Shown here piece after piece: positions 31,579 to 63,409 of a DNA stretch of 64,000 nucleotides. Origin of the DNA: Lacipirellulaceae bacterium (GTDB lineage Bacteria > Planctomycetota > Planctomycetia > Pirellulales > Lacipirellulaceae); assembly GCA_044867485.1 (NCBI GenBank), contig JBIOVA010000218.1:16462-80461 (forward strand), given 5' to 3'. The notes under the pieces were generated by a model. That model was not told the DNA's origin, ran no database searches, and worked only from the letters and a program-made list of their open reading frames with translations. The translations under genes were made by a program, and so were the position numbers. Every line of letters starts with the position of its first letter. Positions within the stretch are counted from its first letter, which is position 1.

Positions 31579-31606
31579 ATTCTAGCGAGTAGTGTACATA
31601 GGTCAA
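31579..31606 (-). promoter_or_regulatory. sigma70-like promoter with an overlapping palindromic box
   Basis: Minus strand TTGACC-16 nt-TAGAAT. The box TGTAC-ATAG-GTCAA (31593-31606) covers the -35 element. Confidence 0.6.
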
Positions 31607-31902
31607 GTATTCGGGCGCGCCGGCCGTGTCTGTCACGCCGAGGTCGGCCGAGGCGTCCGGCCGCAGTCGACCAACTGGACCCCTCGGTGAACCTCGGGGT
31701 GACAGGGTTCGAGGCCCACGCCCAGGACCAGACGGCACTCTTTGCGCAGCTTGCCTGACGCGAACGCCCGCGAGACTCTCTGTAGCTGGCGCCGCCGGTA
31801 AATCTGGAGCCCGCCGCTGGGCGCGGACGATGCTGACTTGTGAATCTCTGCGGCGTATGCCCATTGCAACGGCGTCGCGAGGTTCTCAGGAGGGCGGAAA
31901 CG

Positions 31903-33147
31903 ATGGAGGGGATGTTCTCGCGCCGCGGGCGCCGATTCGCACTGGCCGGCACGCTGCTCGCGGCTTTCGCAACGCTCACGGCCAATGACGCCGTCGGGCA
32001 AACCTACGGCATCGAGATGCACAACACGCTCATGCCCGCCTCCGGCGCCATGGGCGGGGCGAGCATTGCCATGCCGCAGGATCACCTGTCGGCGATCAAC
32101 GGCAACCCCGCCACGCTCACGCAATTCGGCGGCACGAACTTCACGTTCGGCGGCGCGTGGGCCGAGGCGACCTACAACGTCACGCAGCTCGACCCCCTGC
32201 CGTTGGTCGACGTCGATCCGTTCAGTGCGAAGTCGAACCAACCCGGCGGCTCGGCCGGCAACATCGGCGTGACGCAAGAGCTCTCCGCCGGCGGCGTGCC
32301 GGTGGTGCTCGGCCTGGGCTTCATCACGAGCGCCGGCGGCGGCGTCGACTTCCGCGGCGTCCCCGAGTCCAACGGCACGTCCGCCCAGTATGTCGCGCTC
32401 GACATCATTGCCGCGCTCGGCGTCCCCGTCACCGAGAATCTGTCGATGGGCGGCGCGTTCACCATCGGCACGTCGTTCCTTGATGGCCCATTCACCGACA
32501 CGGGGGGTATGGCGACCGCGTACGGCCTGCGCGGCACGATCGGCGCGTCGTACCGGCTTCTGGACGCCACCAGCCTGGGCGCCTATTGGCAGACCAAGAA
32601 GCATTTCCATTTCGACGACGCCGCGGTGTTCGACAGCGGGTCGTTCGACCTGTCGTTCGATCATCCCGAGAACCTCGGCCTGGGGATCGCCGACCAGAGC
32701 CTGATGGACGGCCGGCTGCTCGTGGCGATGGACGTGCTGTTCAAGCAGTACAGCAACGCCGACTTCTTGAGCTCGATTTACGACAACCAGTGGGTCTACC
32801 AGTTCGGCCTGCAGTTCCAAGCCAACGACCGCGTGAAGCTCCGCTGCGGCTACTCGTACAACACCGACCCGATGCGCGCCGCAACCGTCACGGAGATCGG
32901 CGGCGTTCCCGTGCCCGATGGTATCCCGGGGCTGCGCTATATCCAGGGGCAGTTCGCGGCGATCACGCTGCATCACATCACCGCCGGGGTGGGCATCTCG
33001 AACCTGCTGCCGGGGATCGACTCCGACTTCCTGGTGGGCGGCGCGTTCGAGGAGACCGATCAGTTCGCCAGCACGATCGCGTCGGTGGAGAGCTACTGGG
33101 TCGGCACGTATCTCACGTGGCGGTTCGGGGCCAGCGACAGGCGGTAA
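31903..33147 (+). CDS. Outer-membrane FadL/OmpP1-like beta-barrel transporter
   Basis: AGGAGG SD before ATG 31903, signal peptide, ASGAMGGASIA..AINGNPATL hatch motif, alternating beta-strands, aromatic C-terminus (YLTWRF). Confidence 0.78.
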   Translation: MEGMFSRRGRRFALAGTLLAAFATLTANDAVGQTYGIEMHNTLMPASGAMGGASIAMPQDHLSAINGNPATLTQFGGTNFTFGGAWAEATYNVTQLDPLPLVDVDPFSAKSNQPGGSAGNIGVTQELSAGGVPVVLGLGFITSAGGGVDFRGVPESNGTSAQYVALDIIAALGVPVTENLSMGGAFTIGTSFLDGPFTDTGGMATAYGLRGTIGASYRLLDATSLGAYWQTKKHFHFDDAAVFDSGSFDLSFDHPENLGLGIADQSLMDGRLLVAMDVLFKQYSNADFLSSIYDNQWVYQFGLQFQANDRVKLRCGYSYNTDPMRAATVTEIGGVPVPDGIPGLRYIQGQFAAITLHHITAGVGISNLLPGIDSDFLVGGAFEETDQFASTIASVESYWVGTYLTWRFGASDRR

Positions 33148-33308
33148 GTCGCGCAAGGGGCCGCGGCATTCCGCCACGGTGGCGCGCAAAAAGCGGATCC
33201 CCAGGGCTGCGGAGAAGACGGCTCGCTCTGGCGGACACTTCGCGAGCGCCCGACGGCGAGTTGAGCCTGGATTTCTCGGGGTTTTGCGGCTCGGGCGGCG
33301 GTGGGAAT

Positions 33309-33356
33309 TGTCCGCGAAATGTCCGGTATTGTCCGTGAGCGGGTCGATTCTGTCCG
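33309..33356 (+). repeat. Helically phased TGTCCG direct repeats
   Basis: TGTCCG at 33309, 33320, 33330 and 33351 (spacings 11, 10, 21), plus an inverted copy CGGACA at 33232-33237. Confidence 0.6.
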
Positions 33357-33525
33357 CGTGGGGGCCGTGACTGGTCGGGTGACGACCGTTTGGCGGCTGG
33401 GAGCCGCGCGTCGCGCGCCGTCTGCGGCTGGGGGCGGTTGAAGCCATCGTCAGACCTCCGATTTGGGAACTGCGCACGATCATCGAGGCCGAGCGGATTC
33501 GACTCCGCAACCCGAGATGCGCTCG

Positions 33526-33554
33526 ATTATATATACCTATGTATAGTATATCCA
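33526..33554 (-). promoter_or_regulatory. sigma70-like promoter with a perfect palindromic box in the spacer
   Basis: Minus strand TGGATA-17 nt-TATAAT. TATAC-CTAT-GTATA (33532-33545) lies in the spacer. A GGAGG SD (33455-33459) and ATG (33447) follow downstream. Confidence 0.65.
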
Positions 33555-62697: not shown

Positions 62698-62767
62698 GCC
62701 GCAGAAAAGTGCGCCGCGTGCGCCCGCCCAGCTTTCGTCAGCCCGGCGGTGCGGCGCTCACGCAGCG

Positions 62768-62776
62768 ATTATATCA
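62768..62776 (-). promoter_or_regulatory. Extended -10 promoter for the CRTAC1-like gene
   Basis: Minus strand TG-A-TATAAT, 70 nt before ATG 62697. Confidence 0.5.
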
Positions 62777-62982
62777 TCCCCGCGGCCGAAAATGTTCCAG
62801 CACGTCGCTTTCCAAGACGCCGCCGCCGGTCAGTCGTTCGGCGCCGGCGTCGAGGCCGCGGTCGGGCCGCACGGCTTGCCGTTTTGCTGGTCGTTGGTAT
62901 CGCCGAAATCGCAACCGGCAAGACGCCCACGGTATTCGCCGTCGACGCGCTGATTCTCGCGACGATCAGCGCGAAGCGGCGT

Positions 62983-63262
62983 TCAATCGCCGTCGCGCGG
63001 TGATTTGGGAGAGCGGGATCGGGCCTTTGGCTGGTTCAGTAGCGGCGCCGCGAGCTGCTGATAGAGATTGAACAGAAACTCCACGCGATTGCGCTCGCTG
63101 GCGAATGGCTGCGAGCGGTAGCAGCGGTCCACGGCGCGATCGAGCCGCGCGTGCGCCTTGGCCAGATTCGCCGGCATCGACAGCGGATCATACAAATCGG
63201 CCAGCGTCGCGTCAGCGTGGGCGTCCCGGGCGTCAAGCACAGCTTGCGCGGCCTCCTCGACG
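62983..63262 (-). pseudogene. Orphan C-terminal fragment of an MmeI-like type IIL restriction-modification enzyme
   Basis: EEAAQAVLDAR..ATLADLYDPLSMPANLAKAHARLDRAVDRCY..F.SERNRVEFLFNLYQQL is the MmeI C-terminal pattern. No methyltransferase or nuclease region is present upstream. Confidence 0.75.
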
Positions 63263-63369
63263 AAAAGGCCATTCCGCGGCGAAAAAAGTCTGCCGAGATC
63301 ATAGCGGATTGCCCCGCCGATCGCCAACGCCGCCGCAAATCACCACCCACGAAAAAATCGCACTCCCCC

Positions 63370-63409
63370 TAGAAAATGGCCACCAATTCTATTAGTATAC
63401 GGGTGTACA
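63370..63409 (+). promoter_or_regulatory. sigma70-like promoter with a palindromic box over the -10/start region
   Basis: TAGAAA-17 nt-TAGTAT (63370-63398). Box TATAC-GGGT-GTACA at 63396-63409. Confidence 0.45.

Follow-up and report, generated by a model that had tools for sequence, protein, structure and literature searches.

Which regulator acts on the palindrome T(G/A)TAC-N4-GTA(C/T)A, and what does it control? The question is raised by a 64,000-nucleotide (nt) stretch of DNA from a Lacipirellulaceae bacterium (Planctomycetota; Pirellulales), hereafter the window, which spans positions 16462-80461 of contig JBIOVA010000218.1 (C218) in the assembly GCA_044867485.1 (6.23 Mb, 65% GC, 307 contigs). 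A preliminary description of the window had reported three copies of this box in three sigma70-like promoters, and had proposed an SOS-like or other repressor-controlled set of uncharacterised small genes. The three strings are indeed present, and their scores against the position weight matrix (PWM) introduced below are as follows.

31593-31606: site 1, TGTAC-ATAG-GTCAA, 4.3 bits; 2,204 positions of the genome score at least as high
33532-33545: site 2, TATAC-CTAT-GTATA, a perfect palindrome, 21.1 bits, among the 18 best sites of the genome
63396-63409: site 3, TATAC-GGGT-GTACA, 19.1 bits

The claim of a three-site set thus holds for sites 2 and 3, which are strong matches genome-wide, and fails for site 1, which scores at chance level. 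From sequence comparison it is highly probable that the box is the LexA operator, that is, the SOS box, of Pirellulales, and sites 2 and 3 are probably operators over lineage-specific non-coding units.

Genome-wide enrichment of the box

Genes were called with our own crude procedure, based on GC content at third codon positions (GC3), which yielded 4,169 genes covering 79% of the DNA. Across all contigs there are 23 copies of the exact pattern T[GA]TAC-N4-GTA[CT]A, and 20 of these are intergenic by the crude gene calls. The remaining three, nominally coding, lie 21-87 nt 5' of an ATG preceded by a Shine-Dalgarno (SD) sequence, the start of imuA included. When intergenic DNA is used to train Markov models (order 1-4), these predict only 0.19-0.36 intergenic copies.

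A PWM was built on the exact-pattern sites and then refined in one round. With an iterated matrix, 49 non-coding and 5 coding sites reach at least 16 bits, although coding DNA is about 4 times more abundant. At a threshold of 12 bits the genome holds 109 sites (87 non-coding), and at 19 bits only 30, which corresponds to 0.31 expected per 64 kb. In the window itself, no independent position besides sites 2 and 3 exceeds 9.2 bits; matches of 9.8 and 10.2 bits at 33528 and 33530 represent site 2 read out of register. The count matrices read T-[GA]-T-A-C-R-W-W-Y-G-T-A-[CT]-A, a 14-bp dyad of the xGxAC-N4-GTxCx class.

The right half of the box, GTATA(A/T)(A/T), frequently falls on a TATAAA, TATAAT or TATATT hexamer, and the matches might accordingly be regarded as a by-product of AT-rich promoter DNA with TATA-like -10 elements and no operator function. 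This explanation holds for site 1, and the AT-rich islands noted in the preliminary description do exist, but only at a scale of ~40 nt. As an account of the box in general it is hardly credible. Under the intergenic Markov models, up to order 4, no more than 0.4 copies would be expected, whereas at least 20 are observed, so that the absence of genome-wide enrichment in promoters, which had been named as the outcome that would speak against a regulon, is not what is found. Moreover, the left half, TGTAC, is conserved though it is no promoter element, and composition does not explain the dyad, its fixed 4-nt spacing, or the conservation upstream of lexA, recA and imuA with zero control matches (see below).

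Boxes upstream of SOS genes

The preliminary description had placed the regulator outside the window, and had named lexA, recA and imuA-imuB-dnaE2 as genes whose upstream boxes would support an SOS role. The lexA gene lies 771-1373 nt to the left of the first base of the window, and recA lies to its right.

C218 15088-15690 (window -1373 to -771): lexA, an open reading frame (ORF) of 200 amino acids (aa), TIGR00498 at 203 bits (cut-off 111)
C218 88816-90012 (window 72355-73551, 8.4 kb to the right of the window): recA, TIGR02012 at 518 bits

The lexA operator, TGTACGAACGTATA, is found at C218:14928, 146 nt before the gene and 1,520-1,533 nt to the left of the window. The encoded protein is the sole LexA homologue of the genome. 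It consists of a winged helix-turn-helix domain and an S24 self-cleaving domain, and it aligns over its full length to the structures 3K2Z and 1JHH (Thermotoga and Escherichia coli LexA, respectively). In the structure alignment it keeps the Ala-Gly cleavage site (AAG), the serine (GDSM) and the lysine (TLK). Its recognition helix reads SPNGVMCH, versus SPNAAEEH in E. coli.

The recA operator, TGTACGCTTGAATA, scores 14.5 bits and lies ~80 nt upstream of the gene. A perfect box, TATACGTATGTATA (25.8 bits), is positioned 21 nt before imuA in the imuA-imuB-dnaE2 cluster, in which an imuA-like gene (NF033429, E = 6e-29) is followed by an ImuB-like Y-family gene and then by the error-prone polymerase DnaE2 (NF004225, E = 1e-109 on the first 350 aa). 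It is accepted that lexA, recA and genes for translesion polymerases, in combination, mark a LexA regulon (PMC8565304), and the boxes before these three loci support the SOS-like inference of the preliminary description.

Further boxes precede a DinB-like polymerase gene (4 nt upstream), a radical SAM gene of the PA0069 family (480 bits against a cut-off of 360), nrdJ (class II ribonucleotide reductase), hrpB and csrA, as well as a dihydrouridine synthase gene and a DUF1559-type gene. The radical SAM gene is, we presume, possibly related to splB, which appears in the list of SOS genes in PMC8565304. Directly after dnaE2, and convergent to it, a 199-aa gene (C282:12840-13436) appears by eye to be SRAP/YedK-like; it has no NCBIfam match.

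Conservation across Pirellulales

The box is not confined to this genome. Among 78 named Pirellulales genomes, which include Bythopirellula polymerisocia, Aeoliella straminimaris, Aeoliella sp. SH292, and metagenome-assembled genomes (MAGs) of Pirellulaceae and Thermoguttaceae, 75 carry a box of at least 12 bits upstream of lexA, and the coding controls gave 0. The consensus of the lexA operators in these 78 genomes is TGTAC-(G/A)nnC-GTATA-TTA. In a second set, made up of the genome under study and 29 relatives from the same genus, family or order, a box with at most one mismatch precedes lexA at 27 of 30 loci. The half-sites of these operators are constant and the N4 spacer is variable. For this reason the ATAG/CTAT spacer common to sites 1 and 2, to which the preliminary description had drawn attention, is real but carries no weight.

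With the genome under study again included, recA is preceded by a box of at least 12 bits at 21 of 29 loci, at a similar distance to the gene (controls 0/29), and imuA at 24 of 26 loci (controls 0/26). In an unbiased count of 4-mer palindromic dyads with spacers of 0-12 nt in 127 upstream regions, TACG-N2-CGTA ranked first (40 regions versus 0 in the controls). As this dyad is the TAC-N4-GTA core, the count agrees with the box.

These data also bear on whether the palindrome could be bound by a dimeric regulator other than LexA that controls DNA-repair genes. The number of sites is large, and csrA, hrpB, the dihydrouridine synthase gene and the DUF1559-type gene lie outside the usual SOS targets, which would suit such a regulator. 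On the other hand, autoregulation of lexA together with recA and the imuA-imuB-dnaE2 trio is a LexA signature, and it is found order-wide; the genome encodes one LexA homologue only; and the length of the box and its 4-nt spacer are those of known LexA boxes (PMC3091678). A non-LexA regulator is therefore considered very unlikely, and LexA remains the favored candidate.

Relation to known LexA boxes

The LexA motif has changed repeatedly during evolution, with 17 motifs reported by 2021 (PMC8565304). In Planctomycetes, LexA does not recognise the E. coli box (PMC3108266), which is the sole statement on this group in the literature searched, and our literature search found no published Planctomycetes LexA motif, though an earlier in-silico mention may exist. 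The Pirellulales box would fill part of this gap.

Judged by its letters, the Pirellulales box is closest to the cyanobacterial LexA box, RGTACNNNDGTWCB, with the consensus AGTACWNWTGTACT (Mazon et al., 2004, cited in PMC3091678). Both are 14-bp dyads with a GTAC core, an A/T-preferring 4-nt spacer and a GTAC/GTTC right half, and both are located upstream of lexA and recA. The two differ in the outer base, which is T/A here (TGTAC...GTACA) and A/T in cyanobacteria (AGTAC...GTACT), and in position 2, which here may also be A, many sites reading TATAC-N4-GTATA. In addition, the right half of the Pirellulales lexA operators doubles as part of a TATATT -10 element, and the phylum here is Planctomycetota.

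The Cheo/DinR box of Bacillus subtilis, CGAAC-N4-GTTCG (cited in PMC3091678), likewise consists of 5-mer inverted repeats around 4 nt, with a preference for R..Y at the edges of the spacer. The mechanism predicted here is also the same, namely a repressor that would sit over the -10/+1 region and would be relieved by RecA-stimulated self-cleavage. The half-site, however, is TGTAC/TATAC here and not CGAAC, with GTTCA only as a minority right half.

Verrucomicrobia are a neighbour phylum of Planctomycetota in the Planctomycetes-Verrucomicrobia-Chlamydiae (PVC) group. Tandem LexA sites reportedly occur in Verrucomicrobia, and none were seen here. Compared by its cited motif only, the Verrucomicrobia LexA box, TGTTC-N4-GAACA (Erill et al., 2016, cited in PMC8565304), resembles the Pirellulales box in its 5-mer arms starting with TGT and in its 4-nt spacer; its core is TTC/GAA, whereas the core here is TAC/GTA.

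Taken together, these comparisons suggest that the Pirellulales box is a sequence variant, with new letters, of the known Gram-positive/cyanobacterial class, and that its mechanism would be ordinary LexA repression. The ancestral Gram-positive/cyanobacterial geometry would then have been kept in the Pirellulales branch. In practical terms, the box should enable prediction of SOS regulons in hundreds of environmental MAGs as well as in the cultured genera Bythopirellula, Aeoliella and Lacipirellula. What is unusual is that many of the operators are placed on one stereotyped promoter before short, repeated, non-coding units.

Promoter architecture and proposed mode of repression

About 58 intergenic promoters of the genome share a ~45-nt consensus, aaaWTTC-TTGyWG-AAAWTGG(G)CC(G/A)CG(C/A)-N8-TAGGGT/TAnnnT. 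They have sigma70-like -35 and -10 elements 17 nt apart and a GC-rich GGCCGCGC block within the spacer, so that the class can be summarized as TTGnnn / WTGGCCGCGC spacer block / TAnnnT. Readings of the GGCCGCGC block as a sigma54 or extracytoplasmic function (ECF) sigma factor element were dropped by eye, because the TTGnnn-17-TAnnnT spacing fits sigma70. The same layout is found in the nearest relative, G007 (TAGGCCAyG). No promoter of the class, among the ~58, precedes a tRNA.

A box of at least 11 bits is carried by 31 of the 58 promoters. In 20 of these 31, the core of the box begins 3-4 nt into the -10 element and spans roughly -9 to +5. The window contains two copies of the class, at 33545-33574 (minus strand) and 63370-63398 (plus strand), and these belong to sites 2 and 3, respectively. 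Many class promoters are followed, 25-60 nt further on in the leaders of non-rRNA units, by a boxA-like sequence, G(C/T)TCTTTGACAA (e.g., on C131, C36, C254 and C149); it resembles the boxA of rRNA operons, which is bound by NusB/NusE.

In the proposed mechanism, LexA would act as a single self-cleaving repressor whose dimer binds the 14-bp palindrome with a spacer preference of RWWY. Once bound, it would overlap either the -10 element together with the start of transcription, or the spacer between -35 and -10, and from this position of the box it is predicted that the dimer excludes RNA polymerase. Upon DNA damage, LexA would cleave itself under stimulation by RecA, and repression would end. 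At sites 2 and 3, the promoters of the conserved class would then drive a ~330-nt unit with CGGACAAT repeats and a terminator and a ~175-nt unit ending in a hairpin, respectively.

Site 2 and its unit

Site 2 is intergenic, located between a FadL-like gene that ends at 33147 and a patatin gene that starts at 34038. The features of its unit are listed here.

33574-33545, minus strand: promoter P1, TGGAAT (33574-33569)-18-TATACT (33550-33545), spacer block TTTGGCCGCGC, from alignment to the 58-member promoter class
33554-33526, minus strand: promoter P2, TGGATA (33554-33549)-17-TATAAT (33531-33526), from a consensus scan
33188-33519, minus strand: predicted transcript of ~330 nt, with a terminator-like hairpin at 33215-33198 followed by the T-run TCCGCTTTTT
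33307-33355, minus strand: four CGGACA(A/G/T)(A/T) repeats

P2 is the promoter that the preliminary description had reported. The box begins at the last base of the P1 -10 element and fills the P2 spacer. Both promoters face away from the patatin gene and toward the 3' end of the convergent FadL-like gene. Clusters of CGGACA repeats occur 10 times in the genome, 9 of them in non-coding DNA, and 7 of these 9 follow a same-strand box of at least 16 bits at a distance of 133-441 nt. In 39 of 40 relatives the strict CGGACAAT cluster pattern was not found, and the one match, in G007, is unlike it.

Several other identities for this unit were considered. A frame of 604 codons (31633-33447, minus strand), antisense to the FadL-like gene, starts at an SD-preceded ATG at 33447 and has no stop before the terminator. 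Its GC content by codon position is 0.84/0.53/0.66, versus 0.61/0.48/0.90 for the FadL-like gene; the latter, on the plus strand, is taken as the real gene, with a weak Pfam match, and the antisense frame, which reaches the terminator-like hairpin before it overlaps that gene, was rejected as a high-GC by-product. As this is the sole SD-ATG frame, with no stop before the terminator and a non-coding GC3, a tisB- or dinQ-like toxin gene was rejected as well. A CsrB/RsmZ-type CsrA sponge is unsupported by conservation, Rfam or fold: the z-score of the fold is only -1.55, with part of the repeats paired in the predicted structure, and the unit has no Rfam family match (at E up to 5, only chance matches to miRNA and UTR families). 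When relatives were searched with the DNA of 31300-34200, the FadL-like gene and a REP-like repeat were matched and no homologue of the site 2 unit.

Site 3 and its unit

Site 3 lies between a fragment of an MmeI_C gene and an M2-family peptidase gene.

62983-63327, minus strand: MmeI_C gene fragment
63370-63398, plus strand: promoter TAGAAA (63370-63375)-17-TAGTAT (63393-63398), spacer block ATGGCCAC, a member of the promoter class by direct reading
63526-63576, plus strand: conserved hairpin element of ~50 nt, ~120 nt after site 3
63746-64000, plus strand: start of the M2-family peptidase gene, ~340 nt downstream of site 3

The promoter context claimed for site 3 is thus present, and the box begins at the fourth base of the -10 element, which is the modal geometry of the class. 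The hairpin element is composed of a 5' arm, an A-rich loop and three (C/T)TGAGCG units, with the consensus AAGGCGCTCAY-nnnAAAAnC-ATGAGCGAG-ATGAGCGAC-ATGAGCGCCTTG. In the alignment of nine genome copies, from which one further degenerate copy (C205) was left out, the 5' arm forms an 11-bp stem with the third unit, and 4 of the pairs show compensatory changes. The 5' arm can pair with any of the three tandem units, and the element may therefore be a switch or a terminator that lacks a U-tail. Other copies follow a small ORF or face a convergent gene.

The hairpin probably marks the 3' end of a ~175-nt non-coding site 3 transcript, and the M2-peptidase gene, judging by its orthologues (see below), is probably not the target of site 3. 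A type I toxin gene under SOS control was rejected at this site, as the stretch from the promoter to the hairpin contains neither an ATG nor an SD. At E values of up to 5, the unit had only chance matches to miRNA and UTR families in Rfam; for the whole window, no match reached the Rfam gathering thresholds, and the window contains no tRNAs.

The sequences that sites 2 and 3 would govern are thus probably lineage-specific non-coding transcription units, and the small genes envisaged behind them in the preliminary description are most likely non-coding transcripts instead of small ORFs. Genome-wide, 48 non-coding sites are strong (at least 16 bits), and for 30 of them the crude gene calls place no gene start within 300 nt to the left or right. 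In E. coli, the small genes tisB/istR, dinQ and symE are SOS-induced. LexA-bound small-RNA genes in Mycobacterium tuberculosis provide a precedent for operators before small or non-coding units (PMC3381160). The units described here differ from those of both organisms in that they contain no small hydrophobic ORF and form multi-copy, lineage-specific families, and in that non-coding units may outnumber protein-coding targets (30/48 sites). The units of the window thus raise the question of why so many operators front short, repeated, non-coding units.

Repeat modules and a possible spread of promoter and operator

One answer would be that sites 2 and 3 can be bound by LexA and are nonetheless passengers on a family of lineage-specific promoter-operator and MITE- or REP-like elements that multiplied in this species and its nearest relative, the apparent transcripts being repeat debris. 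The evidence comes in part from module A, a ~100-nt repeat bounded by the inverted repeats GGCTTTGCAC...GTGCAAAGCC (on C81, C69, C148, C226, C281 and others). It is present in 17 copies in the genome under study, 9 in G007, 1 in G008 and 0 in 38 other relatives, and in about half of the copies of this genome and G007 the promoter and box lie exactly 8 nt upstream. Such a distribution speaks for a spreading family, as do the ~45-nt consensus of the ~58 promoters with the box at a fixed offset in 31 of them, the near confinement of GGACAAT clusters to this genome, the absence of the window sites from orthologous loci, and the presence of RAYT-like genes and of a REP-like repeat next to site 1.

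Other observations speak against passengers. What follows sites 2 and 3 is not module A, and the two sequences are unlike each other, only promoter and operator being common to them. The stems of the hairpin element and of module A are kept through compensatory changes, some such changes being seen in module A, whose fold is a single long hairpin. The layout from box to module is retained in G007 at 74-78% identity, which suggests selection, and the same promoter class drives ordinary protein genes at normal distances. On balance, we regard the passenger explanation as possible but doubtful. Module A itself could be either a small RNA (sRNA) family or a MITE.

Even so, several points weigh against the proposed LexA operator, in general and at sites 2 and 3. 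The prediction of ~50-90 sites is large for LexA, and half of them share a single, near-identical class of promoter, a hint of a second factor or of spreading repeats. Since the window sites are not conserved at orthologous loci, they could have arisen recently, as selectively neutral copies of a promoter-operator cassette that is spreading. For instance, the orthologues of the M2-peptidase gene in G007, G009 and G010 lack a box in the 650 nt upstream (best 0.7-1.9 bits), and the FadL-like loci in relatives have no box of at least 10 bits at a comparable place, with two unrelated sites only. The crude gene calls make designations such as 'non-coding' or 'no gene within 300 nt' approximate. Finally, the PWM was seeded with the pattern of the preliminary description, so that the genome-wide site counts are partly circular; the conservation at lexA, recA and imuA and the dyad count are independent of this seeding.

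A broader reading concerns the regulon as a whole. The SOS regulon of this lineage would be composed largely of small RNA genes, whose families of short, structured transcripts may include CGGACAAT-repeat RNAs, a module A RNA bounded by terminal inverted repeats, and hairpin-terminated RNAs. RNAs with GGA repeats could titrate CsrA, whose gene is itself preceded by a box, and would thus couple DNA damage to post-transcriptional control. We consider this unlikely, and the LexA operator over lineage-specific non-coding units remains the preferred reading of sites 2 and 3.

Site 1 and adjacent sequences

Site 1 is a chance half-match and not a credible operator. Its right half departs from the near-invariant GTA triplet (at the A). 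The promoter context that had been claimed for it is present on the minus strand.

31606-31579, minus strand: promoter-like TTGACC-16-TAGAAT, the -35 element and spacer of which overlap site 1
31285-31563, minus strand: possible small gene of at most 92 codons, downstream of TTGACC-16-TAGAAT
31630-31711, both strands: palindromic repeat of ~80 nt, adjoining site 1

The start of the frame at 31285-31563 resembles a signal peptide (VNAAVLPVVAATAISLV); the frame also shows a GGGGAG SD, and its GC3 is 0.77. RAYT/IS200-like proteins are encoded in the genome, and two of their genes are preceded by boxes. The repeat at 31630-31711, which matches on both strands, looks REP- or MITE-like and occurs in many copies in this genome and in other members of the genus, for example with 16 matches in G010.

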